64,000 bases of DNA from Patescibacteria group bacterium (GTDB lineage: Bacteria > Patescibacteriota > UBA1384 > XYA2-FULL-43-10 > 1-14-0-10-43-13), in contig JBAYHC010000003.1 of NCBI GenBank assembly GCA_041666325.1, forward strand, positions 31,102 through 95,101. The letters are read 5' to 3'. Positions 10,596 through 38,834 of the stretch are shown here, one piece after another (the first letter of the stretch is position 1; the number at the start of each line of letters is the position of its first letter). A model generated the notes under the pieces. It was not told the DNA's origin, did not search any database, and saw nothing but the letters and a program-made list of their open reading frames with translations. Both the position numbers and the translations under genes were made by a program.

Positions 10596-10604
10596 ATTAC
10601 CCCC

Positions 10605-10922
10605 TTAATAACCTAAGTAGCTCATTCTGAAGTTGATCAAGGCCTGTGCCGTCACCTCGGTAATGTCGGGAATGGCGCGCTGAAGAAACTGTTGAACGTT
10701 ATTACCATCACCCTCACTCAACAGAGTACTAAGCTCTTCGATTTTTTCCGGTGGTGTCGCCGCCAAAAGAGCAGCATGAATATGCTCCTCTACCTTCTCC
10801 CGCAAATCTTTTCTGGCCTCGAATTTGGAGTCCTCATCGAGGTCGCTTAGCGGGCTTTCTTCTATGAGTCTGTCAACAAATATCTCGAGTTCGTCTTTGT
10901 TTTCTTCCCCTGCCATAGCCAT
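10605..10922 (-). CDS. Small acidic helical protein, paralog of 6173..6508.
   Basis: ORF with AAAGGA ribosome-binding site before the ATGGCTATG start. The track start at 10949 is a TTG with no RBS, so 10922 is preferred. Its stop is coupled to the start of the 1355-aa gene. Confidence 0.55.
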   Translation of the reverse strand: MAMAGEENKDELEIFVDRLIEESPLSDLDEDSKFEARKDLREKVEEHIHAALLAATPPEKIEELSTLLSEGDGNNVQQFLQRAIPDITEVTAQALINFRMSYLGY

Positions 10923-10959
10923 TCCTTTCGTAAATAGATATTTACTCAAAAAATCAGTC

Positions 10960-11000
10960 TGCTGCGAGATCTTTTTATCATTATACTGATGAATCAGTTA
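10960..11000 (-). promoter_or_regulatory. Candidate sigma70 promoter for the small-giant-small-giant operon (TATAAT -10 with a TTACGA-like -35).
   Basis: Minus-strand reading gives ...attacgataactgattcatcagTATAATgat upstream of the first small ORF. Confidence 0.3.
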
Positions 11001-11097
11001 TCGTAATAGTAGCTGTCTATCCGCCATGACCATAACTATCGATTTATTTGTCTAGAACATTATTTATTGGTACTTTTGCATCCGATGTTTTTGAATA

Positions 11098-11160
11098 AAA
11101 AAGAGGCCCGGTGCGACTCGCTCTACCATGGGGTAGAATGAGTCATTGCACCGGGCCGTG
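11098..11160 (-). terminator. Rho-independent terminator of the GC-island gene.
   Basis: GGCCCGGTGC...GCACCGGGCC stem with a nested TCTACC-ATGG-GGTAGA palindrome, followed on the minus strand by TCTTTTTTATT. Confidence 0.55.
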
Positions 11161-11197
11161 TCATAGGCACAGAACCTTTCTTGGGACCAGCGGGCCC

Positions 11198-12247
11198 CTA
11201 GCCGAAGAAGAAGAATCTGGCGTCCGGCCACCACAGCACGTTCAGCACCGCGAGGGCGAAGATGACGACACCGACGACGATGAGGATCCGAACCCACCTC
11301 GGGATACGTCCGATCCCCATGACCCATTCACTGATGCCGTAGGCGATGCTGGCTGCGAGGAGAAATCCCAGCCCCAGCTTGAAGATGCCCCAGAGCCACT
11401 CCCAGATGGTTCGGCCAGAGCCGGAATCCGGACTAGCCGGTGGGGCTCCTGCCCCGGGCGCGGGTGCGCCGGGCGCCGGTGCTGCTCCGGGTGTTCCGGG
11501 CGTGGGCGTACCAGGTGCCGGGACCACCACGGCAGGCAAATCATACCGCCCAGCGGGCGGAGACGGCCGACCGGTCTCAGCTTCGAGCAACCGCACCCGA
11601 TCATCGAGCGCCTTGTCGTTGAACTGCAACCTCCCTATCTCCCTCTTCCGGTTGCGGTTTGCCTGTTCCAGGCTCGCTACTCTGTCTTTGAGCCGAGAGA
11701 CAGACTGCGACAGCGCATTGAGCCGAAGCTCGAACTTGGCTGCCCAGCGTGCCACCTCGACCCTGACCATCTGCCGGATACTGGCGATCGAAGCGCCGAA
11801 GCGCTGGCCGGCCGACTGGTGTCGGCTGCTGCCGCGCCAGGCATGGCGGCGGCGCTCGGCGTAACGGCGCTTGTCGTAGCGCTTGCCGCCGGCGGTGACG
11901 CCGGTATTGCCACTAGACGGGGCCAGGGCGGCCGAAGGCCGCTTGGCGGGCGAGGTGGTCGTGACCGGCGGTGTACCGGAGCCCGGCCAATCCGGATCGG
12001 GTGCCGTGACCTCCGTGCCCGGGGCAGGTGCCGGCGACGTTGCCGTCGCAGGCGTAGCCTCTGCCGGAGCCGAAGCCTCGGCAGGCGCCTGCGGCGCGGC
12101 TGGCTTCTCGGGCTCGGTCGGCGCCTGGGGCGCGGATCCACCGTCCTCGGTGTAGACCTCGACGGCGCCCGGCGCCGCCATGGCGCCAATGTTGATCGAA
12201 GCGAACACGAGTGCGGCCACGAGGGCCGCCGCGAACAATACCTTCAC
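11198..12247 (-). CDS. Secreted or membrane-anchored Pro/Ala-rich protein encoded in a ~67% GC island. It has a signal peptide and a C-terminal TM segment.
   Basis: GTG start 7 nt after AGAGGGGAG gives MKVLFAAALVAALVFASINIGAMA-AP. Pro-rich tracts APQAPTEPEKPAAPQAPAEASAPAEATPATATSPAPAPG and PAPGTPTPGTPGAAPAPGAPAPGAGAPP. Central coiled-coil-like segment. C-terminal hydrophobic segment ILIVVGVVIFALAVLNVLWW. GC content is far above the flanks. Confidence 0.5.
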   Translation of the reverse strand: MKVLFAAALVAALVFASINIGAMAAPGAVEVYTEDGGSAPQAPTEPEKPAAPQAPAEASAPAEATPATATSPAPAPGTEVTAPDPDWPGSGTPPVTTTSPAKRPSAALAPSSGNTGVTAGGKRYDKRRYAERRRHAWRGSSRHQSAGQRFGASIASIRQMVRVEVARWAAKFELRLNALSQSVSRLKDRVASLEQANRNRKREIGRLQFNDKALDDRVRLLEAETGRPSPPAGRYDLPAVVVPAPGTPTPGTPGAAPAPGAPAPGAGAPPASPDSGSGRTIWEWLWGIFKLGLGFLLAASIAYGISEWVMGIGRIPRWVRILIVVGVVIFALAVLNVLWWPDARFFFFG

Positions 12248-12428
12248 GGTCGTACTCCCCTCTTCTGCCGCCCTTACGGGACGGCGCTTTCGCCGGCCCT
12301 GATGGGCGGCTCGAAGGACCATTTGAATCTGGCCTTCTGGCAATTGAATCCGGCTTTGGCGTTACTTCGCCAGCGCAGATACAATGTGTCAAAAGACAAC
12401 CTTACCCCTTAAAAAAATGCGACAATGT

Positions 12429-12504
12429 GTTGCACGGCTACGTACAGGCGGAGGGGGAACCTGTATTCCATCCCGACAAGTCGGGGGAGGAAGAGCCGTG
12501 CAAC
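12429..12504. ncRNA. Structured RNA-like element, copy 1 of a tandem pair. It is a three-way junction closed by an 11-bp P1 stem.
   Basis: P1 is GTTGCACGGCT/AGCCGTGCAAC. Hairpin 1 is ACAGG-[CGGAGGGGGAA]-CCTGT. Hairpin 2 is built around CCCGAC-AAGT-GTCGGG. On the minus strand it is followed by a short hairpin and a U7 tract (12411-12440). Confidence 0.4.
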
Positions 12505-12603
12505 ACGCTGTCGCACATACACATAATCGACTAACCTTGAAAGTGCCTGCTCCAATTCACCTTCAAGGAGAATAGCATCAGTCCAAAGAAAAAGGGCAAC
12601 ACT

Positions 12604-12685
12604 GCGCTGTATAACCCACCATAGGCGGAGGGGGAACCTACGTCCCTACCCCGATAAATCGGGAAGGGAAGAGATTATACAGCGC
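12604..12685. ncRNA. Structured RNA-like element, copy 2. It has the same architecture as copy 1 with compensatory stem changes.
   Basis: P1 is GCGCTGTATAA/TTATACAGCGC, a completely different sequence from copy 1 but still paired. Hairpin 1 is AGG-[CGGAGGGGGAA]-CCT with an identical 11-nt loop. Hairpin 2 is CCCGAT-AAA-ATCGGG. Confidence 0.4.
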
Positions 12686-12921
12686 GCTGCTGCCCTAAAT
12701 TGTCAAATGCTTTCTGGCGGCATGTGGTATCTCACCGTCAGAACATAGCATTGTATCATATTTTAAAGAGCTTGTCAATAGCTAACGCATTCTTGGCTTT
12801 TGTTTTCGATCTACCCATAGAATAACACATTTTCGGCAAAAACTAAAGACCCCTCGATCGAGAAAATCAGTATTTTATTGTTTACCAGACTAGATAACAA
12901 GCAAATGAATAGTTAACGGTG

Positions 12922-24059: not shown

Positions 24060-25601
24060 CTAATTCGTTGGTGGAAGATTTGGAGCGGCAGCAACTACTA
24101 CTGCGTTTGCCGTTGCAGTCTTCTCGGCAATACCGTCAGCCTTGGCGTAAGCGGTGTTCACCAATGGGTACGTACCCGCTGGCGGACAACCATAAACGTT
24201 ACCTTTGAGAATAATCGTTTTGGTTGCACCTGGTGCAATTGTGCCGATGTTTATGCCACCAGTTGTAATAATCTGATCGTTGACAGTGTTCCCGTCAACC
24301 CTGGTTGATCCGGAAACATAGTTAACAAACTGAGGCAGAGCGTCACGAACAATGACGTTGGTCATGTTCACGCCACCGCTGTTTGTGACCTTGATACGAT
24401 ATGTAATATCCTCAAGAAACTTAACGGTTGGGTTCACGACTGGATTACCATTGACGAGAACTTCTTTGGTAAGAGTCAACCCTGCCGGTGCGAGAGAGAC
24501 AACAAAGACAGTTGCCTGATCCCGGTCCTGCTCAACATTGTTCATGAAGACCTTGGCCAGGTTGTTGAGTGTCCACTCTCCGACCGGCAAGTTGCCGATC
24601 CTGGTTCGGTAAGTTATATATCTTATTCCCCCAGTGCCAGGAGCAATGTCAGGCATCGATATGCCGGTAGTGGCGATAGTATCAGGAAGTGTCGTAAATG
24701 CAGTCGGACTTGTCCATAATCTGGTCGAGCCGGCAACCAGCGACAATGCTGGTGGAAGAGTGTCCTTGATTGTAACTTGAGTAGCTGCAGCGGTGCCCAG
24801 ATTGTTTACTGTCAGGCGGAACGCAACTTCATCGCCAGGATGCACATTACCGGTTGCACCAACTGACTTCTGCCAATCATCGCTACCGGCCAGCGAAACA
24901 TGTTTGTCAATACCGATATTTGGTCTGCCCTTAATGTCAGCCAAGAAGGTAACATAGCCCGAATATGGCCAGCACCCCTGAATATCACCGATATTTACGC
25001 CAGTGTTGGCGATACCATCAGGCAGATTGGCAATCACTGGAGCTGTGTCAGGCCCATTTGGAAACGTAAATTTCTTAGTTGAACCGTTAACGTATTCGAT
25101 ACGACCAGCTACCGGCAGATTGAGGGTAACACCACTATTGCCTTTGACTTGTCCATTGATGACTGTGTCTCTAATTGGATCTGTCTCGTCGGACCAGAGC
25201 CAACTTGTACCAACCAGCTGCGTGTGTTCGCCGGCCGGGAAATCAACACGGATGGTTGTTCGATGTGCAACTGTATCGGGTACACCATTATGGAAATAAA
25301 CCATGAAGGCAATCCGATCTCCGATATTAACATTGTTGAGCGGATCACTCCACGTGTTAGAGGTCGTCTTACCCGCCATGAACATCTCAATATCACCCTC
25401 ATTTGAACCATCTTCTGCCGGGCCCAAGAAGTTGAAGCGCGGCGTTCTGGCTTGCTGCGCCTCTGCATTCTTTACATCAGTACCAGGCAGTGCGACAGCC
25501 GACACGATTGATGCCAAAGCCACGACTCCGATCAAGAGTTTTTTTGTTTTTGTCCAGAAACCCCCCTTTGAGCTTGAGGTAACATTCTGAATGCTCTTCA
25601 T
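24060..25601 (-). CDS. Secreted DUF11-repeat surface protein, paralog of 21843..23999.
   Basis: Signal peptide. Shares the post-signal PRFNFL motif with its neighbour. DUF11-like units VAFRLTVNNLGTAAATQVTIKDTLPPALSLVAGS and ITYRIKVTNSGGVNMTNVIVRDALPQFVNYVSGS. Ends in NLPPTN. Confidence 0.75.
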   Translation of the reverse strand: MKSIQNVTSSSKGGFWTKTKKLLIGVVALASIVSAVALPGTDVKNAEAQQARTPRFNFLGPAEDGSNEGDIEMFMAGKTTSNTWSDPLNNVNIGDRIAFMVYFHNGVPDTVAHRTTIRVDFPAGEHTQLVGTSWLWSDETDPIRDTVINGQVKGNSGVTLNLPVAGRIEYVNGSTKKFTFPNGPDTAPVIANLPDGIANTGVNIGDIQGCWPYSGYVTFLADIKGRPNIGIDKHVSLAGSDDWQKSVGATGNVHPGDEVAFRLTVNNLGTAAATQVTIKDTLPPALSLVAGSTRLWTSPTAFTTLPDTIATTGISMPDIAPGTGGIRYITYRTRIGNLPVGEWTLNNLAKVFMNNVEQDRDQATVFVVSLAPAGLTLTKEVLVNGNPVVNPTVKFLEDITYRIKVTNSGGVNMTNVIVRDALPQFVNYVSGSTRVDGNTVNDQIITTGGINIGTIAPGATKTIILKGNVYGCPPAGTYPLVNTAYAKADGIAEKTATANAVVVAAAPNLPPTN

Positions 25602-25895
25602 GGGCATCCTTTCTTTCTATTTCTTAACTTTAATTTAATTAGTCTTATTCTATCTTTTCGTCTATCAACAAGCGCTTAAACATAACACGGCCAATACCTG
25701 TTGTCAATAGGCCACATCTCATCCGTGCGTTTCATAATATTTATGATGTCTAGAAAACAATTTTTCCCACCACTGCTTGTCGCTACTTCAAAGCAACAAT
25801 CGTTCTTCTGATGGTTGCTTTGGGTAACGGGCGACTCAAAGAGTCGCCCTGGGATCGGATGGGGACGCTTCTCCTGGAGAATTGTCCCCGGTTTG

Positions 25896-26846
25896 TCAGA
25901 ATGCCGCTCCAGGCGGAGGCGTTGTCGGCGCCCCGGGCTGGTTGGCGTAGTCGTTGTTGGTCCACGACGTCGGTGGCAGAGGGGGTGGGCCTGAGCCACC
26001 GCCTGACCCCGGCAGACCGCCCGCGCCACCCGGCAGGGTGGGCGTGCCGCCCTGGCCCCCGTTGTCGTGGGGGGTGGTGACGAGCGGATCGTTGGGCGGG
26101 GGCGGCGGGTTGCCGTTGCCCGGTCCATTGCCAGGCTTGCCGCCCTGGCCGGGCTGACCACCCGGCGGGTTGATGATGTTCGTGTTGGTATTGCTATTGT
26201 TAACACGAATATTGTTCTGCTGCCTGGGGGTATAGCCCAGGCTACTGGAATGCCCCCAGCGCTCGGTGCGCGGAGCGCGCGCCGACCGGTACGACATCCC
26301 AAGGTCGACTTCGCCTCGGAAACGCCGCACGATCTTCGTGCGCCTCACGATCGGAGCCGGCGAAGCCGGGACCTCCGGGAGATCGACGTGCACCTGCGTC
26401 GCAGGTGCCTCGATCTCGACCTCAGTCTCAAACCTCTGGTCCCTGGGGGCGGGCGGGGGCGGGCAGACGTGCTTGGAAACAGACCAGCAGGCCGTGGAGA
26501 TGTTGCCGCAGCCTGCCTTCGAGATCGAATCCTTGTTCAGCGCCACGAAGACACGGGCGTTGAACTGGGTTCCCACCTGCCGGCCGTAGAAAACGCTACC
26601 TTCCGGCCAGCGAATGCGCCGCTGAACCCAGCCGCTCTTACGGTGCAGCGTGGTCGTGCCCCATACCGCGTACGGAGCGACGCCGACGACCTCGCCGGGC
26701 TGCATCTGCAGCACCTGGGCCCGGTCGGGGTTGGGATTCTGGAGCAGGTAGGAGACCTCGACGGTCTCCGTCGCCTGAGTTGCCGAAAGCGGAGCTGCCG
26801 CTGCGAAGGCCGCCAGGAGGACGACCAGCCACATGCGTATCCTCAT
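25896..26846 (-). CDS. Secreted protein with a Gly/Pro-rich C-terminal tail, encoded in a GC-rich island.
   Basis: Signal peptide MRIRMWLVVLLAAFAAAAPLSA. C-terminal low-complexity tail PPGGQPGQGGKPGNGPGNGNPPPPPNDP...GGAGGLPGSGGGSGPPPLPP. Start overlaps the stop of the upstream gene. Confidence 0.6.
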   Translation of the reverse strand: MRIRMWLVVLLAAFAAAAPLSATQATETVEVSYLLQNPNPDRAQVLQMQPGEVVGVAPYAVWGTTTLHRKSGWVQRRIRWPEGSVFYGRQVGTQFNARVFVALNKDSISKAGCGNISTACWSVSKHVCPPPPAPRDQRFETEVEIEAPATQVHVDLPEVPASPAPIVRRTKIVRRFRGEVDLGMSYRSARAPRTERWGHSSSLGYTPRQQNNIRVNNSNTNTNIINPPGGQPGQGGKPGNGPGNGNPPPPPNDPLVTTPHDNGGQGGTPTLPGGAGGLPGSGGGSGPPPLPPTSWTNNDYANQPGAPTTPPPGAAF

Positions 26847-27914
26847 CTACTTGCCCTCCTCCAAGGTCATGCGGTACTTCGCGTCGCCGCTGACCTTGAT
26901 GGTCGTCTTGTACAAGGTGCGGGTCTGCCGAGCAAACATTCGCACCACCACCACCGTTCCGGGCGGTGCCTTCACAACCAAAGGCTTGCCATCCGTCTGA
27001 GCCTTTTCGTGCCCGTCCGGCATAGCATATCGCTTGTAGACCTCCTTCCCGTCCGCTTCGACAACGGCGTCATACGGACCGCCGCCATAGCCGCGAGGCG
27101 GGAAGACCTTGATGGTCACCCGGCTTTCGCCGGAGTTAGTCTGCGAGGCGGCGTCTTGGATACGCTTGACGGCCTCATCGGTCGTCTGCCGCACATCATG
27201 ACGCCACTTCTCCAGCTCGGGGGTGTTCTCGACAGTCCCATTGCTGGTGCCCTCGTCGACTACCTCCTCGCTATCCTCGCCAGCGGCCGCGTCTGGGTTG
27301 GTCGGCATGCCACCGAAGTGATAGCCAGCCATCCAGCCCGCCAGCTGGTCGCCGGTGCAGTTCCCGCCCGGTCCCTCGACCAGGAAGTATTGCACGAAGT
27401 TGTTGTGCTTGGTCTTGCCGCGGAGCGAGAGAACGGGAATCCAGAGCGCGTAGTAACGGCTCAGCTTCCCGCCATCCAGCTCGACGATGGGATACATCGC
27501 ATGCGACCCCAAGCGCTGACCTGACGTGCTGACGAAGTCGACGAACCCCTCGCCCGGAGTCAAGGCTACCGGTGTTAGTCCCTTGATGATCCCGCTGGCC
27601 TCCTTGGAGGATGCTATCGGGATCGGGGACCACCTGATGCTCTTGATCTCCCCGCGCGAGGTTGAGATGTCCAGTCGCCGTCGGAGCGACGTGCCTCTGA
27701 CTGCCGTCAGGGCCTTGTCGGAGCGATCCGACCAGGTCCAGAACGGGTCACCCGAGGTAGCGCCCGACGCATAGTGATCGACGGCCACCGAGACGGTGAC
27801 CTCGGCCTTCTCGTACTGATTGTTGAGGCCGATGAGCCAACCGTCCGCCGCATTCGCGTTGCCAGTGATCACAGCAGACAGCAGGATCACCAGCAGCCAT
27901 GCTGCTTTTTGCAT
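26847..27914 (-). CDS. Secreted hypothetical protein in the same GC-rich island.
   Basis: Signal peptide MQKAAWLLVILLSAVITGNANA after an internal Met. Translationally coupled to the downstream gene. About 65% GC. Confidence 0.6.
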   Translation of the reverse strand: MQKAAWLLVILLSAVITGNANAADGWLIGLNNQYEKAEVTVSVAVDHYASGATSGDPFWTWSDRSDKALTAVRGTSLRRRLDISTSRGEIKSIRWSPIPIASSKEASGIIKGLTPVALTPGEGFVDFVSTSGQRLGSHAMYPIVELDGGKLSRYYALWIPVLSLRGKTKHNNFVQYFLVEGPGGNCTGDQLAGWMAGYHFGGMPTNPDAAAGEDSEEVVDEGTSNGTVENTPELEKWRHDVRQTTDEAVKRIQDAASQTNSGESRVTIKVFPPRGYGGGPYDAVVEADGKEVYKRYAMPDGHEKAQTDGKPLVVKAPPGTVVVVRMFARQTRTLYKTTIKVSGDAKYRMTLEEGK

Positions 27915-28079
27915 CTTCCCTCCCCTTTCTGCGTGATCACCTGCTGTGCAGGCGGTGATCGTCTGTGTGTGTACTATCTTCCTGGCAGCCTGCCCTGCCA
28001 GAAGATCATTCGGACTTAGCCTTCGCTTAGTCCGAGACATATGAAATGATTAATTAATTATTCACGCTAGCTCTCGCTC

Positions 28080-28160
28080 GTCATCCTGAGAGAATCGAAA
28101 GATCTCTTCGTATGCCGCGGGATTCTTCCCCCAACATGTCGGGATCAGAATGACAACTGG
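28080..28160. repeat. Boundary palindromic element A (GTCATCCTGAG ... TCAGAATGACAACTGG) at the right edge of the high-GC block of island 2.
   Basis: Terminal inverted repeat GTCATCCTGAG / CAGAATGAC. The interior has nested palindromes. The same terminal motif is found in element B at 36950-37091. Confidence 0.5.
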
Positions 28161-28321
28161 AAGCGTATCGCAATCATTTTCACTTCGTCTCAAACTAATT
28201 CCCTCTCTATAAACAAAATTGGGCACAAACTACTGTAGCCCAATACTATTATTGAATTCTCTGCCCCTCGTCAATACCTCGATGGTCAATGTTATCACCG
28301 CTTTCTTGGGCATAAGTCCTC

Positions 28322-28412
28322 AATCCCCTGCTAAATTACAAAGAAAACGAATTACCAAAACACGAATCTCAATTTATTTGTACTTTCGTGCGGTTATTCG
28401 TAATTTCGTAGG
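28322..28412. repeat. MITE-like palindrome of the TACGAA-word family (cctgctaaattac ... gtaatttcgtaggag).
   Basis: Arms are related to the inverted repeats of the GxxExxY cassette. Confidence 0.4.
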
Positions 28413-28671
28413 AGTTTGGTTATTTCCTTCAATCAAGCCAGGAGAGCGGCGAGAAACGATAGCAGCCGGCAAGGCCAAGTCCACTATTTTTTTGGGACTT
28501 GTGAATGCCAACCAGCCTTAAGACCTACCGTCCTAATTTCCCACTATCCCAGCCAGGTTGAAGAAAGTAACATTTTTTAGCTCTATGACACTGATATTTC
28601 TTCCCCCTCTGCTTCGAATTACTCAACGGAAGGAATGTTATCACTTTTAGAGATATTTGTCAATAGTTAGA

Positions 28672-28702
28672 CACAAAAGTGGTGGACATCAGTCCACCAC
28701 CC
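28672..28702 (-). terminator. Intrinsic terminator (GTGGTGGAC-tgat-GTCCACCAC followed by TTTTGTG) overlapping the stop codon of 28689..29108.
   Basis: Perfect 9-bp stem followed by a U-tract on the minus strand. Confidence 0.5.
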
Positions 28703-30862: not shown

Positions 30863-31918
30863 CTACTCTAGCTCAGCTTGCGTCGGAGCCAATTGGTTGT
30901 ACTCACCTACCTCAACACCATATTCCGAAACAAACTCCTCGTATGGCAAATCATCAACCGCACCAGCCACCTTCGCGCCTCGCAATTGGTATTTAGAAAC
31001 AACTTTCCACTTCAGACCCTTTTGGCGGATTTTCGTGCGCAAGGCCTTAACATCGCTACCAGTCCAAATTGTAATCGGCTGCTCGCCAGATCGCTCTTCG
31101 ATTAAGGCAACAACATCTGGATTCAACTCGCCATTCTCGTCGAGCAGTGTGCCTTCGATATCGATGCACAGATCAGGAAACTCCTCGCCAGCGAGTGGCG
31201 TAATTCTTTTGTTCGCTTCCGCCCTCTCCATCTGTGTCAGCCGGATCAACTCTTCTTGCGGCAAATCGCCGAAAACAAGCCGAGCTAACCTCTCCCACGC
31301 TACCATTTTGTCTCCGCCTTGAGCCAAGGCATATCGCAAATCATGCTGGAGTGCGCCAACTGCAGTTTCAGCATTTGGCACTTCCATTAATCGCAAAGCC
31401 AAGGGATCGCTGGGTCTTGTCTCATTCTCAACTTCGCCAAGTAAAATCGCCTTCATGTCAACCAATGACAGCGGAAGTCTGGCAAAGTGAACATTGGAAT
31501 AAGAGCGCAAGGCGTGATATCGTTTATCGTTGGCCAGCTGAATCTCGGGCGACCAAGACAAAACAATAACCGGTTTTCCATCCGGAGCAAATTTTAGTGC
31601 TTCATCAAGCCCAATCATGTCTGTCCGCTTGCCACCGTCAACCAACATCTCAGAAAAGACCAGTGTTCCCTCTGTGCCCTCGGGCAACAACATTGTCGCC
31701 CGCTCCAGTGCTTCTCGAATCGGCGCACTATCCGTGATAATTCTAATCTCGGGTCTGCCCCGCAGTACATCTTTGTCTTCTCTGCTGCGTTCTTGGGCCG
31801 ATTCGAGTTCTCCGGCTCGAGCCGAGGCAACCTCGCGATCCTGAGATAATTCTTTATCCAAGCCACCATCGCCCTCGGTCCCCTCGCCATTCAACGCACA
31901 ATACTTTCTTTCGTCCAT
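30863..31918 (-). CDS. Hypothetical protein with a C-terminal HAD-like hydrolase module.
   Basis: DLCIDIEGTLLD carries a DxDGT motif I, followed by a Rossmann-like C-terminal region. Confidence 0.55.
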   Translation of the reverse strand: MDERKYCALNGEGTEGDGGLDKELSQDREVASARAGELESAQERSREDKDVLRGRPEIRIITDSAPIREALERATMLLPEGTEGTLVFSEMLVDGGKRTDMIGLDEALKFAPDGKPVIVLSWSPEIQLANDKRYHALRSYSNVHFARLPLSLVDMKAILLGEVENETRPSDPLALRLMEVPNAETAVGALQHDLRYALAQGGDKMVAWERLARLVFGDLPQEELIRLTQMERAEANKRITPLAGEEFPDLCIDIEGTLLDENGELNPDVVALIEERSGEQPITIWTGSDVKALRTKIRQKGLKWKVVSKYQLRGAKVAGAVDDLPYEEFVSEYGVEVGEYNQLAPTQAELE

Positions 31919-32287: not shown

Positions 32288-32902
32288 TCATACTTGACTT
32301 TCTTTAATTTCTTTCTTTTCATCTTCTTTTTTAATTGTTGGTATTTCACCTGGGTCGACACCAAAACGGCGGCGGGCAACATCTCGCAAGGCTTCAGACG
32401 AATAGCTGGCCAAAGGGTTGCCGCTCTGATGATAGGCGTTCAGGTCAACTTCATAAGTCGTTTTTCCGTTGCCAAACCAGTTAGTTTCCTCTGTATTATA
32501 TTGCTTGCCATAACGATAAATCTCTTGATAACCAGCGAATGGTATAGTCGAGCGAACATGGATCATCTCGCCGCTATCAATTTTCAAGACCGTCCCGACA
32601 AATTCCTCGCCATCATAAATTCTGACCGCCCGAACTTCTCCACGATCATTTAGAAAATATTCACCGCGAAGACCCCTCTCCTCGGCCTCTTTTTGCAACT
32701 GTTGACAGCGCTCCTCTTCTCTTGACGCTAGCTGCTTCTTGTTTTTTTCTCGCTCAAGAGCTTCCAAAAAATATTGTCTGATCGGCTCCCAGTCTGGATC
32801 AACCTTCCCGTTTTCGTCTGCACCCAAGCAGTCAACCACACCATTAACAACATTTTCATTAATTACACCGTCAATTTCCTGGCCTTCGTTTTCTCTTCGC
32901 AT
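32288..32902 (-). CDS. Hypothetical protein.
   Basis: ORF with an internal start at MRRENEG. Confidence 0.5.
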   Translation of the reverse strand: MRRENEGQEIDGVINENVVNGVVDCLGADENGKVDPDWEPIRQYFLEALEREKNKKQLASREEERCQQLQKEAEERGLRGEYFLNDRGEVRAVRIYDGEEFVGTVLKIDSGEMIHVRSTIPFAGYQEIYRYGKQYNTEETNWFGNGKTTYEVDLNAYHQSGNPLASYSSEALRDVARRRFGVDPGEIPTIKKEDEKKEIKESQV

Positions 32903-33118
32903 AGTCTCCTTTGTTAACAAAAAATGGAGTTTCCTCCAGGTTAAAAAACTCATTAGTCTAACATTGTCTCCAACTCTCGAGCCGCCCACCTCCGTGGTCA
33001 GCTCGAGGTTAGGCTCGGACCCGTGTCCGAGCAGGATTGGAAACTTGCCGCCTTTTCTCGCCCCCTATGTGTTCAGGGGGAATCACGGCTTATCGACCCG
33101 TTTCCAGGGCCGTGGCAC

Positions 33119-33616
33119 TCACTTGGCCAGCGCTTGCCGGCGCCGCTCGAGACCGAGGGCTCTTGACATTCTCTGAATCTCCCGATCTACCGCGCGCATA
33201 TTGAATTGCACGGCGTTGACAGTAGAGTAGGAACTTTCAGAGAGACAATTACCCTGCTTGTCCCGAACGATCACCCAGACGTAGTTGCCATAGTGGCCAG
33301 GCGTTACCTTGGACTCGACGATAAAGTCGGCCCCGGTAATACTGGTCCGCTTGGCACCCGCCTCGATGATCGCCTGCATTGCCCTGGAGACAAGCGGTCC
33401 GCCGTTCTTGGAAGCGACCGTCATGCCCGCGATGTCCGCCTCTTTGAGAGCACTCTTCACACTCTCAGGCAGCGCATCGTAGCGCTTGACGATCTTCGCC
33501 TCCTCGGTAGTCAGCAGACGCGGCTCGTCGTCCTTAACAGCACAACCGGCACAAGCCAGCGCAACGAACAGTAAGACAACGACTTTTTGTATTTGTTTCA
33601 CCCCCTCTCTGAGCAT
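33119..33616 (-). CDS. Lipoprotein (lipobox LACAGC) in a GC-elevated region.
   Basis: MLREGVKQIQKVVVLLFVALACAGCAV.... Confidence 0.5.
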   Translation of the reverse strand: MLREGVKQIQKVVVLLFVALACAGCAVKDDEPRLLTTEEAKIVKRYDALPESVKSALKEADIAGMTVASKNGGPLVSRAMQAIIEAGAKRTSITGADFIVESKVTPGHYGNYVWVIVRDKQGNCLSESSYSTVNAVQFNMRAVDREIQRMSRALGLERRRQALAK

Positions 33617-33698
33617 TCTCTGCTCAAGGTGAGCTCGGTTGCGGGTCGGACCCACACCCGAGCAGAGATACGAGGAGCTGCGCTTGCCGTTTTGCTGC

Positions 33699-34073
33699 TC
33701 ACTTGGCGCGAGCAAACCGGCGCTTGTAATAATCAACCTCCCTCCCTTCGTCATTGACCAGATGGTAGACGGCGATGTCCAGCCACTGGCCCGCCTCGAC
33801 CGGTCCGTTGGGATCGACGGTGCCGTCGTACTCGATCCGACCAGGCAGAGCGATCCTGCCCTCGTCGTACTCGAGACAGACGACATCCTGCTCGGTGTCC
33901 CCTCTGAGCTTGCAGGCAGCGGAGCCCGCCGGAGCCTTGACCCAGACCTCGACGAGGATGTCGCCGTTGGCCTGAGGCACGTACTCCTCTCGGGTGATCT
34001 CGCCGCCCTTGGTCTGGGCACAGCCGGCGAAAGCGAGAATGCCGAAGATAGCGATCAGTGCCAGTGCCTTCAT
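33699..34073 (-). CDS. Lipoprotein (lipobox LAFAGC).
   Basis: MKALALIAIFGILAFAGCAQ.... Confidence 0.55.
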   Translation of the reverse strand: MKALALIAIFGILAFAGCAQTKGGEITREEYVPQANGDILVEVWVKAPAGSAACKLRGDTEQDVVCLEYDEGRIALPGRIEYDGTVDPNGPVEAGQWLDIAVYHLVNDEGREVDYYKRRFARAK

Positions 34074-34711
34074 GAAACCCTTCCTTTCTGTGAACACACT
34101 ACAGTCTCCTCGCAAAGAGCTCCTTGAGCCCTTGTGCCAATAGACTGAAATGGCAACCCATTACAACAAAATCATTTACCAAAAACACACACCCTTTTGT
34201 CGCGTACGCTACAAAAGTGATGATGTTTTCAACCCTCAGAGGATAGCCCGATCACAAGATCGGGCAGGATCTATCTGAGAGCAGAAACCGGGGGCGGTGG
34301 AGATAATAGTATGGATGCTCGACTTGATAGCCAAAAACCCACACCCTCGTTCTCTCCACCAAGGCAACGAGTAGCCGTTTATAGCAACGGCGGTTGATGC
34401 CTGCCGGACACACTGGTGTGCCCAGCCCCTACGACGACATGCGGTCATCGCACAACACGACGTTATCTCGTGTTGCCGGTCTTTTCGGGCAGCGGAGTAG
34501 TTACCCACTTTTCCTCCACCGTCTTGCCGCAATCAGCCAAGCTGACACTGGCGGCAAAATAGGCTGAGCGGGTCCATGCCACCTGCGCCGAGCTCCTCGA
34601 TTAGGATCGACGACGCAAGTTAAGGCTCCTCTTTCTGCTTAACCTACCCTTACTGCTCAACCACTGGCAACAATGCTACCTAAGGTGGGTACCAGATAGT
34701 TGAGTTTTCCC

Positions 34712-34790
34712 GATGAGCATTCCGCTCTGAGTCAACCCTGAACCCGACGTGGTTCAGGGGGATATCAGAAAGGATCTGAGGTGGTGAAGA
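34712..34790. repeat. Repeat R1, containing the hairpin CCCTGAACC-n6-GGTTCAGGG.
   Basis: gagcattccgctctgagtcaaccctgaacccgacgtggttcagggggatatcagaaagg. Confidence 0.5.
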
Positions 34791-35819
34791 TAAGAACCGT
34801 CTTATCCAGACGTTCCCCGCTCTCTTCACGCAGGGCAGCCTCCCCGGCCAGGCCCTAGATGGCCCCGGCCTATTGAGTGAGCTCTAGCGGTACCACTATC
34901 TGCTGTGGTTGGCTATGTTCCCTCCCAAACAGATTTCGGGAAGCCGAGTAATCGCCCAGTTTTCCTCGGCCGTTTCACCGCACCGGTCTGATCCTTCCCC
35001 AGGGAAGAATAAGTTCCGGGGCGATAAATTCATCGAGACCAGTAAACAGCACCGTGTGCCGCCACTAATCTCACCCTTTGCGCCGGCTAGTTGAGTTGTA
35101 ACATGAGTCTATCAACCTCATGCCACCGGGTGTTCAACAATCATAGCCTGGCAATTTCAGGAAGCGTGGCCTTAATCCTGTAATTCATCCACGCTTTTCA
35201 CCGCACCAGTGGGTCTCGTGACCGTTCAAGGCGGTCGCGCCTTTCGGCTCCCGAGGTAGACCAACTGGAGGCGGCAAACAACTCGAAGGTGCTAGCACTA
35301 GGCCATCATTTGACCACCAGCACATTCTCGTCGCCTTTTTCATGACTGGGCGAATGACGGGATCGCGATTTCAGGTCGCGGCAGGTATCCCGATGCCCAG
35401 TCGCCGATTCCTTCCTCGGAGGATGGCCCGATCTCTAGTGGATCAAGGCCGGATCTTTCCGAAGAAAGAGTGGGGGTGTGGAGAATATAGTCGCCGTGGC
35501 GACCCTCGTCACCTCCACCACACCAGTTACGAGTGGGCTGAGTTACACCTCAGGTGCACCTGAGACTTGGCTCTTATGGCGGGCCTTTATCCGCCCCTGT
35601 GCCCATCTGGGACCCCCAATTTCGGGACGGCAGATAACTATCCGTCTTTCTCTGCCGGCTCGCCGCACCACACTGGGGGCGGCAAGTATCATCAAAATGT
35701 TGCGATGTCCGGTACATATCCCGGCTTGCTTTTTTTGACGACCCCTTCTTGTTGTCGATCCAGTAGGTGATTCACCCCGGCCTGTGCCGTTCGGATACTG
35801 CCTCGACAACCATTTTTAT

Positions 35820-35895
35820 TGAGCTTCCGCTCTGAGGCAACCCTGAACCCAATACGGTTCAGGGGGGATATCAGAGGGGAAATTGTGTCACCTCG
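35820..35895. repeat. Repeat R2, about 85% identical to R1.
   Basis: gagcttccgctctgaggcaaccctgaacccaatacggttcaggggggatatcagagggg. Confidence 0.5.
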
Positions 35896-36079
35896 ATTTG
35901 GATGAGTGTGGTTCGCCCTGGGTCCTCCAGGAAACAGGCGCCACGAAGGTGACAGCGGGGATCATATCTGCGCTTTCCTTTACCGCGCTTTTCTTATAAG
36001 TTTTGCAGCCCTTGGGCTATAACTTCTTATAAGACGGCCTGATACTAGCCGGATCGTTCTCGATCATCGAAGCTTCAAG

Positions 36080-36376
36080 CTACGCTGGGCTGACGGAGAG
36101 CCCCAGCTTGCCGCTCAAGAAAGCAGCGGCCACAGCCGGAGTCTTCGCCAGACTCTCGGGATACGGCAGTGATACGATCACGCCTCCCCCGACGTAGCTC
36201 CGCTCGCCCTCCCCGCGCAGTGCGTTTTCCACGTAGTGGATTCGCCCCGAGCAGGTGGTGCAATGCGAGCAGCTAATGCGGGCGACTTCTATCGCCACCT
36301 TGTCTCTGTCAAAAGAGACTTGGCGCGAATTCCGCCATCCGCCTACCCACACACGAAACCCGTGTTCAGGCATCAT
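36080..36376 (-). CDS. Possible small Cys-containing protein (CSHCTTC), weakly supported.
   Basis: GGGGGGTG ribosome-binding-like motif before ATGATG. 98-aa ORF inside the otherwise non-coding stretch. Confidence 0.3.
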   Translation of the reverse strand: MMPEHGFRVWVGGWRNSRQVSFDRDKVAIEVARISCSHCTTCSGRIHYVENALRGEGERSYVGGGVIVSLPYPESLAKTPAVAAAFLSGKLGLSVSPA

Positions 36377-36949
36377 TGTTCACCCCCTTCCCTTTTTGGT
36401 GCCTAATGCCGGCCTTTGCCTTGCGGCCGTACCGGTTTGACAAACCGCCTCAACCAGAAGTCTCATCTTTCTTCCAATTGATTTGGCTAGCCAATCAGCA
36501 GTTTCAACTTTCCAGCCATCAACTATTTGATAGCTCGAGGTTGATCCCGATCCGCCAAAGGCGAGATCGGGACAGGTAGGGATATAGGTGTTGGGCGCAG
36601 GGATTATGTCATCATCAGGGTTCGGGCCCGACGAGACCTCATTCTCCTGCCAGGCGCACTTAGGCCTTTTAATGAGTAGGGATTCCCCTATACGCCCCCT
36701 CAAGGGGAGCGAAGCGGGGGCCACCCTGGGCACACTCCTGCCACTGCCCGACCAGCGGGCCCAACACCTCTTCGGTCAACCGGCCACAGCCGTGCTTGAC
36801 TGAAGTCTTCATTGCGGTGAAGTGGAAGGGAGTTGTAGCAGACCGTACCCCGATATGCGGCTAAGGTGGTAATTATATTTCCTGCCGTCGGGGGGAGTGC
36901 CACAACTCTGCTTCCAGCTCACTGCAAATATTGTTTATTTCTCTTTCCC

Positions 36950-37091
36950 ATCATCCTGAGCGAAGCGACCGTGTCCCTCGTAGCTTTAGCGGAGTGAGAT
37001 GGATCTAGAGCCGATGCATCGGTTCACATGCGGTCGCCGCGGCGACCTAGATTCTTCGCTTCAAAGCTACATCGCTCAGAATGACAATTGG
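36950..37091. repeat. Boundary palindromic element B (TCATCCTGAGCGA ... TCGCTCAGAATGACAATTGG) at the right edge of island 3.
   Basis: About 140-bp imperfect palindrome with nested inverted repeats (GTAGCTTTAGCG/CGCTTCAAAGCTAC, GGATCTAGAG/CCTAGATTC, CCGATGCATCGG). It shares its terminal motifs with element A. Confidence 0.5.
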
Positions 37092-37423
37092 TTCTTTGTC
37101 AAACTGACTTGACTTATACTGTGGTTAATGAAAAATCTTATGTTTGCAACCTATTGGCTTAAATTAAGCCTCACATGGCTGATTTATTTATAAGTTTCTC
37201 ATTCACCAGGACACAATGCTACCATATTGTTTTTATTTTGTCAATGCTAGTTGACATATTTATATAACAGTTATTACATTTGTCAAGTCAGGGACTACAA
37301 AATTACCACCAATTTATTTAGTGAATGCTATGAAAGTGTTATATATAGCGGACAGATTGTCATCACCTGTTTAGCTTTATTCAAGACTAATTTCTTACTA
37401 TTTTGTTCGGTGATGGCAGTAAG

Positions 37424-37452
37424 TATTGACAATATTATTATTCTGTGCTAAC
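37424..37452 (+). promoter_or_regulatory. Strong sigma70-like promoter (TTGACA-17-TAACAT) in an AT-rich region that also carries TTGTCAA/TTGACA operator-like palindromes.
   Basis: agtaTTGACAatattattattctgtgcTAACATtgtgagc. tgtcaatgctagttgaca at about 37240. Confidence 0.45.
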
Positions 37453-37454
37453 AT

Positions 37455-37905
37455 TGTGAGCGTAATCCTGCAGAAGGGAGGACTCAAACCGGGAAGTGCC
37501 CCAACACTGGGGGCGAGACGACTGTCTAGCTTCCCGGGGCAAACCTCCGGGAATCGTCTGGTGGTATCACCGTTCGGTCTCCGGAGGGAGGTGGAGCTAT
37601 GGATACATGAGTATCCTGCGCTTGCCGGGCGCCTTATGGGCGCCCGTGGAAGCAATAGCTTCGCCATCCTGCCTGAGGAAGAAAGAAATGGATGTCTGAA
37701 AAAGAGAGGCGGCCAATTGCCGCCGGATGGAAGACGATCGTGTCATTTTCGCTCGTTGGCTTGGCCGTCGGCAAATCAGCCAGCGGCTAGGCACACAGCG
37801 ATAGCCTGAGTGCGCCCGAGGACGGGTCACTCTCGAAAGGATCTGCTACATCATATGGGCAGATAGCGACCACAAAGGCGCCCCGACTAGCGGGGCGCCC
37901 ATTTT
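37455..37905 (+). ncRNA. Candidate ~450-nt non-coding RNA of unknown class, GC-rich, lying between the promoter and the intrinsic terminator.
   Basis: No credible ORF; the only track ORF starts inside the promoter and is low-complexity. Internal GC hairpins such as CGGGCGCC-ttat-GGGCGCCCG. Terminator hairpin at the 3' end. No plus-strand gene lies downstream. Confidence 0.35.
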
Positions 37906-37910
37906 ATTAC
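37873..37910 (+). terminator. Intrinsic terminator GGCGCCCCG-actag-CGGGGCGCC followed by CATTTTATT.
   Basis: Perfect 9-bp GC stem followed by a U-rich tract. Confidence 0.55.
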
Positions 37911-38075
37911 TATAGACATCACATTGCGCGATATCACCAAACCGTCTGTCATCCCAGCGAAAGCTGGAACCCAGAACGCTAAAAGCCAGATTTCCGATGC
38001 CTGCGGATGCTGGCAGGCAGTGCTGGAATGATAAACCATCAGGTACGATCAACACAAGTTCAAAAATTACCAGTA

Positions 38076-38834
38076 CTACTTGTGAGCACCTTGCCAAGCA
38101 AGCTCAAATATTAACTTCATATTCTGTGCAAACTCCTTGCTCTCGATGACCACCCCATGAGGCTTCTCAGGATGAAAATAGTACAGCTTTATTCCCCAAT
38201 CAGGATAAACTGTCATCGTCATATTAAGCGGAAACTTGTCTCGCGAGATGAAGACGCCATCTCGCAGTTCTGCCTCGTTTTTGAAGGAAGGGATCTCGCC
38301 ATCCTCATGGGTGTAGATTGCCCTGGATCGAATACCCAGCTTGATACGCTCACCAAGCGACTGCTGTCTTCTGTCCTTAAAATACTTCTCCATGACATCA
38401 ATCGGGGCGATACTCAAGATCTCTGAGTTTTTCTTAAGTAAATTTCGACCATATCGATCCATGGCCATTAATCCATCAGCACCCTCGAAATAACGCACGA
38501 CTGGCTTGCCGCTCTGGGCATTATTCAGAGCCATTAGTTGGTTCATGATCTCTTTGAGTTCATTCTTCCTCTCATCGATCTCTGACTGCTGCTTCTTTAG
38601 AAGATTTTCTAGCTCTTTTGGGTCTTCCGCGATAAATAATGTTTTTTTGCCCTGCTCAACCGTGCTGACTAGGCCAAGCTTCATCAGTTTGTCTAAAATT
38701 ACATAGGCCGTGGGACGGTTGACGTCGGCTTTTTTGGCGATGTTTTGAACAGTATCTTGGGCAAGCTCGAGCGCCGCCAAATATACCTTGGCCTCTTTCT
38801 CTGATAGGCCAAGCTTTATAAGAGTTGTAAGCAT
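38076..38834 (-). CDS. TrmB-family transcriptional regulator.
   Basis: N-terminal winged helix-turn-helix LGLSEKEAKVYLAALELAQDTVQNIAKKADVNRPTAYVILDKLMKLGLV. Start is taken at MLTTLIK. Confidence 0.7.
   Translation of the reverse strand: MLTTLIKLGLSEKEAKVYLAALELAQDTVQNIAKKADVNRPTAYVILDKLMKLGLVSTVEQGKKTLFIAEDPKELENLLKKQQSEIDERKNELKEIMNQLMALNNAQSGKPVVRYFEGADGLMAMDRYGRNLLKKNSEILSIAPIDVMEKYFKDRRQQSLGERIKLGIRSRAIYTHEDGEIPSFKNEAELRDGVFISRDKFPLNMTMTVYPDWGIKLYYFHPEKPHGVVIESKEFAQNMKLIFELAWQGAHK

Follow-up and report, generated by a model that had tools for sequence, protein, structure and literature searches.

The stretch of DNA examined here is a window of 64,000 nucleotides (nt) from contig JBAYHC010000003.1 of a Patescibacteria group bacterium, in which positions 34,100 to 36,930 had been described in an initial annotation as GC-rich DNA with no credible open reading frame (ORF). 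The region is indeed GC-rich, with a GC fraction of 0.54-0.56 over 34-37 kb and 0.54-0.60 over 33-37 kb against 0.41-0.50 in most of the window, and it is ORF-free except for one conserved gene of 97 amino acids (aa), referred to here as ORF97. The window also lies in a 687-kb contig, k141_115123 of the ENA metagenome assembly ERZ27249449, and the gene callers applied to this source contig called nothing between 34098 and 36079, and only the 97-aa ORF and a 114-aa ORF between 36080 and 38075; the gene-poor stretch continues to 38075, which contradicts the earlier statement that coding density exceeds 90% everywhere else. On the minus strand, ORF97 is preceded by a conserved leader and followed by a five-helix element (the P element), a 1.7-kb array of structured modules and two lipoprotein genes. 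Most of the ORF-free DNA is covered by RNA secondary structure that is both conserved and strand-specific, and the tightly folded, conserved RNA modules, ~2.5 kb in all, match no catalogued family. Judged from the sequence, the proposal that the ORF-free DNA represents the RNA-structure part of a single transcription unit on the minus strand, in an uncultured, ultra-small Patescibacterium resembling Berkelbacteria, is well supported; the closest named homologs of a neighboring protein are from Berkelbacteria. In transcript order, this unit would comprise the leader, ORF97, the five-helix element, the module array and the two lipoprotein genes. The putative promoter (~37.2 kb) and terminator (~32.93 kb) bracket the GC-rich block exactly, with no strong internal promoter. 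The features are summarized in Table 1.

Table 1. Features of the proposed minus-strand unit, in transcript order (positions are those of the window).
Feature	Coordinates	Strand	Details or basis
Sigma-70-like promoter TTGACA-17-TAGCAT with TG	37216..37244	-	Consensus scan, 10/12; proposed unit start
Conserved non-coding leader Q	36377..36951	-	Overlaps a probably spurious 114-aa ORF
ORF97, small protein gene	36080..36373	-	Motif VRVxGW..R..EIAR..CxHCxTCxxR
P5: helices Ha, Hb, Hc	35986..36072	-	5' box CTTCGATGA (family consensus CTCGCTGA), AGAA loop, 3' AGAAAA tail
P3: linker, helix Hd, helix He (R2 hairpin 35820-35895)	35816..35985	-	Independent minimum free energy folds
Rest of unit B: S1/S2 central motif 35695-35640, Hd-like stem 35530-35475, H2-B hairpin 35461-35414	35414..35815	-	
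Middle segment: long acceptor-like hairpin ~35400-35345, central motifs M2 35210-35155 and M1 34987-34932, Hd-like stem ~34856-34806	34791..35413	-	
R1 hairpin, second He copy heading unit A	34712..34790	-	BLAST; P-element profile match 34776-34706, E 6e-5
Rest of unit A: central motif 34535-34483, hairpin CACGA..TCGTG, Hd-like stem 34362-34295, H2-A hairpin 34280-34234	34234..34711	-	
5' leader and ribosome-binding site AGAAAGGAAGGG, then ATG, of the first lipoprotein gene	34098..34233	-	Read in the sequence
Two lipoprotein genes	33699-34073, 33119-33616	-	Lipobox signal peptides read in the translations
Intergenic hairpins	33690-33607, 33096-32975	-	Conserved with L087
Intrinsic terminator, TGGAGGAAACTCCA then TTTTTTG	32938-32925	-	Consensus match; only canonical site

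Related loci (designated by L numbers) were found mainly through the TrmB-like regulator encoded to the right of the unit, which has many homologs at 50-78% identity, on contigs that are gene-poor downstream of trmB. Locus L087 (TrmB 67% identical) is syntenic and carries its own GC-rich block of 54-62% in a 41% genome; window segments 37788-37169, 36951-36593 and 34095-33041 align with it in nhmmer searches, and 35461-35409 does so weakly (E 0.055). The ORF97 gene and the DNA following it are conserved in L170 (ORF97 79% identical in aa), L093, L101, L172, L173 and L115, all obtained from a metagenome scan with a TrmB profile and further look-up, and additional matches to the elements were found in L172, L173, L096, L088 and others. 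The array itself was found in the window and L170 only, L087 and L093 having other content at that position. A CysRS-based scan of GTDB species representatives gave no CysRS more than 56% identical and hence no useful synteny, and its 80 loci were left out of the later comparison; exact-protein look-ups returned only contigs from two Logan assemblies and one JGI sample that match the window at 99.98-100%, which makes them useless for covariation. The initial annotation had proposed an alignment with relatives as a check for nucleotide-level conservation, and this is what the alignment reveals: homologous elements stand at the same place in the relatives, with many compensatory changes.

The P element occupies ~265 nt of the minus strand (36079-35816), and it starts 7 nt past the ORF97 stop codon. 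Helix Ha is a stem of 5 base pairs (bp) capped by the AGAA loop and preceded by the box CTCGCTGA, and Hc is a long interrupted hairpin. Hd is formed by GTCACC...GGTGAC around a hairpin. In He, CTCTGA/TCAGAG forms the outer stem, AUCC/UUGCC the internal loop and 9 bp the inner stem, which is capped by a loop of 4-6 nt. This five-helix architecture recurs in independent minimum free energy (MFE) folds of the window, L170, L093, L101 and L096; in L173, Hd is seen without He, the contig ending ahead of the latter. The inner stem of He reads CCCTGAACC/GGTTCAGGG in the window, TCCACGACT/AGTCGTGGA in L093 and GTCCCGATC/GGTCGGGAT in L170. Since MAFFT aligned the hairpins with their stems out of register, a covariance model was built for the first three helices only, and the R hairpin and the central motif described below rest on single-sequence folds.

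The Ha-Hc model retrieves 14 instances from 755 kb of related loci and scores 87 bits in the window (E 4e-18). In the alignment of these 14 sequences, which was fitted to the model so that the pairing figures are somewhat inflated, 96.9% of 287 cells are paired, versus 26-45% when the partners are slid by 1-3 columns. Both sides change in 23 of 26 pairs, none of 500 shuffles coming as high, and the covariation score is 0.579 versus 0.02-0.13 in the slid controls; Ha-Hc thus carries the compensatory substitutions, beyond shuffled and slid controls, by which conserved structured RNA is generally recognized. The recurrent U·G pairs of these helices would become A·C mismatches on the opposite strand. 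In 13 of the 14 instances of P5, a same-strand open frame of 87-297 codons ends between 17 nt before and 9 nt after the first base of the element, and among these frames are homologs of ORF97, a response-regulator ORF and ORFs of 232 and 132 aa. P5 is therefore a gene-end element and not an appendage of ORF97 alone. The P element follows ORF97 in six of eight homolog loci, the ORF97 homologs of L171 and L115 being without it. Downstream of P5 and of the R hairpins lies AGAAAA or GCGGAAGC with no T-run, so that neither qualifies as an intrinsic terminator. A reading of the UGA within the CTCGCTGA box as resembling a selenocysteine insertion sequence (SECIS) was dropped because this UGA is out of frame with ORF97 in the window.

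Two repeats of ~75 nt, R1 and R2, had been noticed earlier, and BLAST recovers them as a pair (34714-34769 versus 35820-35875; 87.7% over 57 nt, E 1e-11, spacing 1105-1106 nt), with the hairpin CCCTGAACC-n6-GGTTCAGGG (9 bp, 6-nt loop) in both copies. The supposed partial copies at ~33612 and ~33070 amount to 16 nt at 81%, which is below BLAST significance, and form part of other intergenic hairpins conserved with L087. R1 and R2 are the best-conserved tips of homologous units of ~480-560 nt, unit A (34229-34776) and unit B (35410-35883; nhmmer E 6e-12): R2 is the last helix, He, of the five-helix element, and R1 heads a second copy of the ~0.5-kb module. From the ORF97 element to the next gene, the 1.7 kb of DNA consists of diverged structured modules arrayed in tandem, running on the minus strand from 35815 to 34098 through the remainder of unit B, the middle segment, R1, the remainder of unit A ending in H2-A, and the leader of the lipoprotein gene. 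A full module consists of the S1/S2 central motif, a stem enclosing a hairpin, and a terminal extended hairpin of the R or H2 type. The 50-nt central motif is present in four copies in the window and one in L170. Its S2 stem differs in each copy (CGGTGGAG/CTCCGCTG in unit A, GCCGAG/CTCGGC, AGCGTGG/CCACGCT, CGGCAGA/TCTGCCG in unit B, and CAGCAAGG/CCTTGCTG), with the flanks TGCGG and CCGAAA fixed across copies. In the case of unit A, the S2 stem is complete on the minus strand only, via two G·U pairs.

The individual modules of the array are related to one another and to L170. The remainder of unit B is homologous to unit A in the same nhmmer comparison and to L170; its terminal hairpin matches the H2 pattern, as does H2-A, and its Hd-like stem reads GTGGAG..ACGAGGGT..ACTATAT..CTCCAC. 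The middle segment matches unit A (34934-34982 with 34483-34531 by BLAST; nhmmer E 2.5e-5) and contains the repeat TTTCACCGCACC at 34973 and 35196. Within unit A, 34533-34285 aligns with L170 1132-1368 (E 1.6e-18) and shows compensatory changes, for example CACGA/TCGTG versus CGCGA/TCGCG; the homolog in L170 sits after that locus's own P element and is followed by a second R hairpin. An R-like hairpin is also present in L088, and a crude pattern screen found a looser one in L155. The R pattern had no match in viral contigs, and the H2 pattern none in a metagenome-contig collection that does not hold this sample, since the pattern does match JGI contig Ga0376277_0006540, so that absence from the collection says little. 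In the R hairpin, the 3' side of the outer stem (TCAGAG) overlaps a small alternative hairpin, GAGC-GGAA-GCTC followed by an A-rich run (35835-35812 and 34730-34706, minus strand), which reads GAGC-AAAA-GCTC in the second L170 copy; the two pairings are mutually exclusive and therefore a possible switch. The R internal loop UAUCC finds its complement in the S2 loops GGAUA and GGGUA. On the plus strand of unit B, GGGGGTG...CACCTCCACCA can be read as tRNA-like, but this reading was abandoned because the alternative pairing, GTGGAG/CTCCAC, is common to unit A and L170, and because the tmRNA-like genes of the relatives (see below) lie on the other strand.

Folding energies add to the evidence for strand. 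The MFE of 34098-35000 is -392.7 kcal/mol (z -10.2) on the minus strand versus -314.5 kcal/mol (z -6.8) on the plus strand, and that of 35001-36079 is -438.1 versus -407.6 kcal/mol; the CysRS gene, folded as a control, gives z +0.7. Together, the G·U pairs and the folding energy point to the minus strand, which is the sense strand of the flanking genes.

ORF97, which the initial annotation had suspected of being the only gene here, is real: it has a family of homologs and a confident AlphaFold model (pLDDT 95.4, pTM 0.86) with β-β-β-α-β-β-α-β topology. The family comprises 48 clusters at 50% identity (E<=1e-3), all of ~90-110 aa, and becomes visible only in an exhaustive hidden Markov model (HMM) search, simple protein searches with ORF97 and with a lipoprotein giving two clusters each. 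A strong ribosome-binding site, GGGAAGGGGGTGA, is read in the sequence ahead of the gene. No meaningful match to ORF97 was obtained in Pfam, PHROGs, PDB or BFVD, and the only Pfam or PHROGs match among the island proteins is a response-regulator domain in an ORF of L093. Upstream, the leader from 36951 to 36593 matches L087 1719-2053 (nhmmer E 2e-28) with indels of 1 and 3 nt and with covarying hairpins (CCCC-TTGA-GGGG versus CCGCC-GCT-GGCGG), and 36550-36377 aligns with L170 116-289. The 114-117 aa ORF at 36380-36733, which has no Pfam match, is probably spurious because the DNA under it keeps its similarity to L087 and L170 across indels of lengths not divisible by three.

No known RNA family accounts for the region. 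The initial annotation had found no ribosomal RNA (rRNA) signature and had asked for an Rfam scan; there are no matches at gathering score in the whole window and only noise (E 0.5-9) in 32500-38100, and no match comes near the gathering score of any Rfam 15 model, including rRNA, RNase P, SRP, 6S, OLE, GOLLD, ROOL, HEARO, raiA, group I and II introns, ribozymes and riboswitches. Neither ARAGORN nor the models RF00023 and RF00005 detect a transfer RNA (tRNA) or transfer-messenger RNA (tmRNA) in the window, even at E<=10. In sister loci, by comparison, the tmRNA model exceeds its gathering score of 47 in L087 (2826-2960, 66.7 bits), L088 (11801-11924, 71.3) and L171 (2569-2650, 54.3). These matches span 82-135 nt and contain the tRNA-like domain only, with ~30-63 nt where ~300 nt of tag-coding and pseudoknot sequence would be normal, and ARAGORN calls no gene in L087 or L088. 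In L087 and L171 the match is immediately preceded by an H2-type hairpin; in L088 an R-like hairpin lies ~65 nt upstream, with a terminator-like hairpin in between. The earlier rejection of a diversity-generating retroelement stands, as no reverse transcriptase or other Pfam family was found in the ORFs of the region or their neighbors, and the five R1/R2 mismatches (T/G, G/A, C/T, G/A and T/C) are not confined to adenine.

At the ends of the unit, the -35 region of the promoter is 91% identical to L087 1576-1597, where TTGACA-17-TACAAT is read by eye, and the lipoprotein gene at 33699-34073 has 76% nucleotide identity to L087 3357-3727. The lipoprotein genes are followed, at 33690-33607 and 33060-32975 (minus strand), by intergenic hairpins of a second family, CTGCTCGGGTGTGG..CCGAGC..TCACCTTGAG, which recurs in L087 at 2405-2460 and 3745-3795. 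The ~33612 fragment abuts the first of these, and the ~33070 fragment belongs to a separate conserved hairpin just upstream of the second. Between the same two hairpins the window has a 165-aa lipoprotein gene (33119-33616) and L087 an unrelated small membrane-protein ORF (~3870-4170), in the manner of a cassette-like replacement. On the right, a candidate small RNA of ~440 nt (37440-37930, plus strand) is convergent with trmB and conserved with L087 and L093, with a promoter TTGACA-17-TAACAT (37426-37454), a strong terminator at 37877-37899 followed by a T-run, and no Rfam match; in the window, L087 and L093 alike, GGAGGGAGGTG is followed, after a spacer of 5-6 nt, by ATG and two more codons before a stop (MDT*, MGG* and MDG*). 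Contigs from two independent Logan assemblies, each matching the window at 100%, end precisely at 37029, the center of an imperfect palindrome of ~150 nt (36945-37095) with two small perfect palindromes, CCGATGCATCGG and GGTCGCCGCGGCGACC; this could reflect differences among strains at the edge of the island or reduced coverage over the hairpin.

To the right of the island lie housekeeping genes, namely FtsW, L21, SecE, NusG, L11, an Mfd-like helicase (UvrB/CarD/DEAD/helicase domains), DprA and TopA, together with RecR, CysRS and the TrmB-like regulator. Leftward, out to 28.7 kb, no gene has a Pfam family. A 351-aa protein to the left of the island (30863-31918, minus strand) is homologous to the 310-aa protein after ORF97 in L171 (3616-4548), and the accessory region therefore reaches at least 29.6 kb; the pair shares ...PLAGE.F....CDIEGTL..., which looks haloacid dehalogenase (HAD)-like by eye, with no Pfam match. 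Two further GC-rich blocks, 10600-12900 (63% GC) and 25600-28700 (62-66% GC), contain long ORFs overlapping on both strands and have neither a Pfam family nor similarity to any fetched locus.

Our preferred interpretation, to which we assign a probability of roughly 0.55 from sequence comparison, is that these elements act in cis on a polycistronic mRNA as gene-end and intercistronic stabilizing or processing modules. The helices would fold on the mRNA strand, block 3' exonucleases and define processing sites, and they would thereby set the stability and relative output of ORF97 and of the secreted proteins encoded downstream; parts of the structure may be retained as stable small RNAs. With their conserved internal loops AUCC and UUGCC, the R/H2 hairpins that recur along the array would be the best candidates for a repeated protein-binding site. 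Several points weigh against this interpretation. The promoter and terminator are consensus matches, and co-transcription is inferred. Each element has ~5-14 homologs, several of them paralogs or close relatives. A second GC-rich stretch, 26900-27802 (minus strand), is called as coding and still folds with z -6.0; GC-rich islands may therefore fold well in general, and the minus-strand excess is the informative part. The window holds a single P5 copy, so that the gene-end role is established for the P element and not for the 1.7-kb array. Moreover, 1.7 kb of conserved structure far exceeds the needs of an exonuclease barrier and fits a dedicated RNA better.

Such a dedicated molecule, a stand-alone large non-coding RNA or ribonucleoprotein (RNP) similar in kind to OLE, GOLLD or ROOL, is a possible but distinctly less favored alternative. 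An RNA of 1.7-2 kb would be processed from the operon transcript to serve in trans as a scaffold or sponge, with the ORF97-family protein or another factor binding the R/H2 hairpins. The extreme strand-specific folding (z -10.2), the compensatory changes that maintain structure in the unit common to L170, the repeated hairpins with conserved internal loops and an amount of structure beyond what a cis element needs all suit it, as does the presence next to the P element, in most homolog loci, of a small, confidently folded protein of unknown fold. Yet the array has no promoter or terminator of its own and was found in the window and L170 only, with L087 and L093 differing there; ORF97 homologs occur without the P element in L171 and L115; and none of the database searches with ORF97 points to RNA binding. 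The initial suggestion of a large structured RNA thus stands as far as conserved covarying helices, strong folding and the lack of a known family are concerned, but the structure consists of modules around a small gene and need not be a single molecule. A bolder version, which we consider rather unlikely, is that the 2-kb stretch and the post-ORF97 element define a new Patescibacteria-specific class of multi-kilobase modular RNA, an RNP with the ORF97 Cys-motif protein; the tie to translation or ribosome rescue that it would include is drawn because sister loci place a tmRNA reduced to its tRNA-like domain after the same H2-type hairpin.

It is quite unlikely that the hairpins act instead as DNA, that is, as cassette boundaries or recombination sites in a mobile or hypervariable island, integron- or shufflon-like, in which the ORF-free stretch would be a run of cassette ends that lost their genes. 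The GC-rich block in a genome of 41-45% GC (in the window and L087), the different genes between conserved hairpins (the 165-aa lipoprotein versus the L087 membrane protein), the position of P5 after the stop codons of unrelated ORFs and the end of contigs from two other samples at 37029 would all agree with such an island. Against this, no integrase, transposase or other recombinase family lies within 10 kb on either side, there are three separate hairpins in place of one bulged attC-like hairpin, U·G pairs are kept on one strand only, compensatory changes are kept in units without an adjacent gene, and there is no phage or plasmid similarity. We regard as very improbable a graveyard of frameshifted pseudogenes or a functionless, decaying acquired element, for which the island-like GC content, the many short ORFs of 50-117 aa and the scarcity of relatives for comparison could be cited. 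The initial annotation had proposed degraded genes and a tBLASTx-type check for frameshifted remnants. When peptides translated from the ORF-free parts in all six frames were searched by tblastn against 2 Mb of related loci, the same stretches matched in several frames and on both strands, a pattern expected of nucleotide conservation, and neither these loci nor Pfam gave any frame-consistent similarity; the ten longest ORFs have no Pfam family. Furthermore, double substitutions preserve helices, and folding reaches z -10 on one strand. BLAST against phage and plasmid collections found nothing similar. The related proposal of a decayed acquired element keeps its variable island, its foreign GC content and its gene content that differs between relatives, but not the decay, as the non-coding parts are under selection for structure.

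Patescibacteria, also known as the candidate phyla radiation (CPR), form a huge, uncultured and host-dependent radiation, and our literature searches found no comparable region and no description of structured non-coding RNAs from them. To our knowledge, large, elaborately folded bacterial RNAs are rare, and every one discovered to date (OLE, GOLLD, ROOL, HEARO/omega RNA) has opened up new biology. The region offers a covarying gene-end element behind unrelated genes, a kilobase-scale module array and a new small protein family, and it has a connection with truncated genes resembling tmRNA in sister genomes. Should the array prove to be a functional RNA or RNP, it would pose a testable question about the control or protection of transcripts for secreted and surface proteins in minimal cells. 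If it is cis-acting mRNA architecture only, it still represents a new element family, useful for CPR annotation, where such stretches receive spurious ORFs such as the 114-aa call.

Comparison with known systems places the elements between several classes. As with repetitive extragenic palindromic (REP) and bacterial interspersed mosaic element (BIME) stabilizers and with intrinsic terminators, structure stands right after stop codons in gene orientation and recurs behind unrelated genes; the present element is distinguished by its three to five helices, its box CTCGCTGA and an A-rich tail instead of a U-tract, and, at ~90-265 nt, it is much larger and more elaborate than REP/BIME and not dispersed in the genome, with one copy in 64 kb. 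Integron attC sites likewise form a structure-conserved element at the 3' end of several unrelated ORFs with variable gene content between elements. However, the gene tables for 10 kb on each side contain no integrase family and thus no IntI, three consecutive independent hairpins with an unpaired 5' box and 3' tail replace the single hairpin formed by paired ends, only the sense strand preserves G·U pairs, and no attC cores were seen, these having been sought by eye only. The sponge RNAs CsrB and RsmZ carry tandem ~20-nt hairpin modules with GGA loops that bind their partner CsrA; the array here also consists of tandem similar modules that could titrate one protein, but these measure 200-500 nt, with no GGA-loop motif established and no CsrA-like partner identified. 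The likeness to tmRNA (RF00023) lies in the sister-locus matches beside R/H2-type hairpins, whereas the window has no tmRNA or tRNA signal and the sister matches contain the tRNA-like domain only. GOLLD and ROOL are large RNAs of variable or mobile-looking regions, often beside tRNA-like genes, and they share with this locus that kind of setting, hundreds of nt of complex conserved structure and, in the sister loci, a tRNA-like tmRNA fragment beside an H2 hairpin; they differ in that no model matches, no phage context is present and the structure here is internally tandem. OLE RNA (RF01071, with its partners OapA, OapB and OapC) is a large, very structured RNA located within an operon beside genes for small partner proteins. 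The region described here resembles it in being a highly structured RNA in, and co-oriented with, an operon, with an adjoining small protein gene and an unusual lifestyle of the organism. It nonetheless belongs to another phylum, gives no covariance-model match and has no OapA-like membrane protein, and where OLE forms one compact fold, the structure here is a chain of repeated modules.

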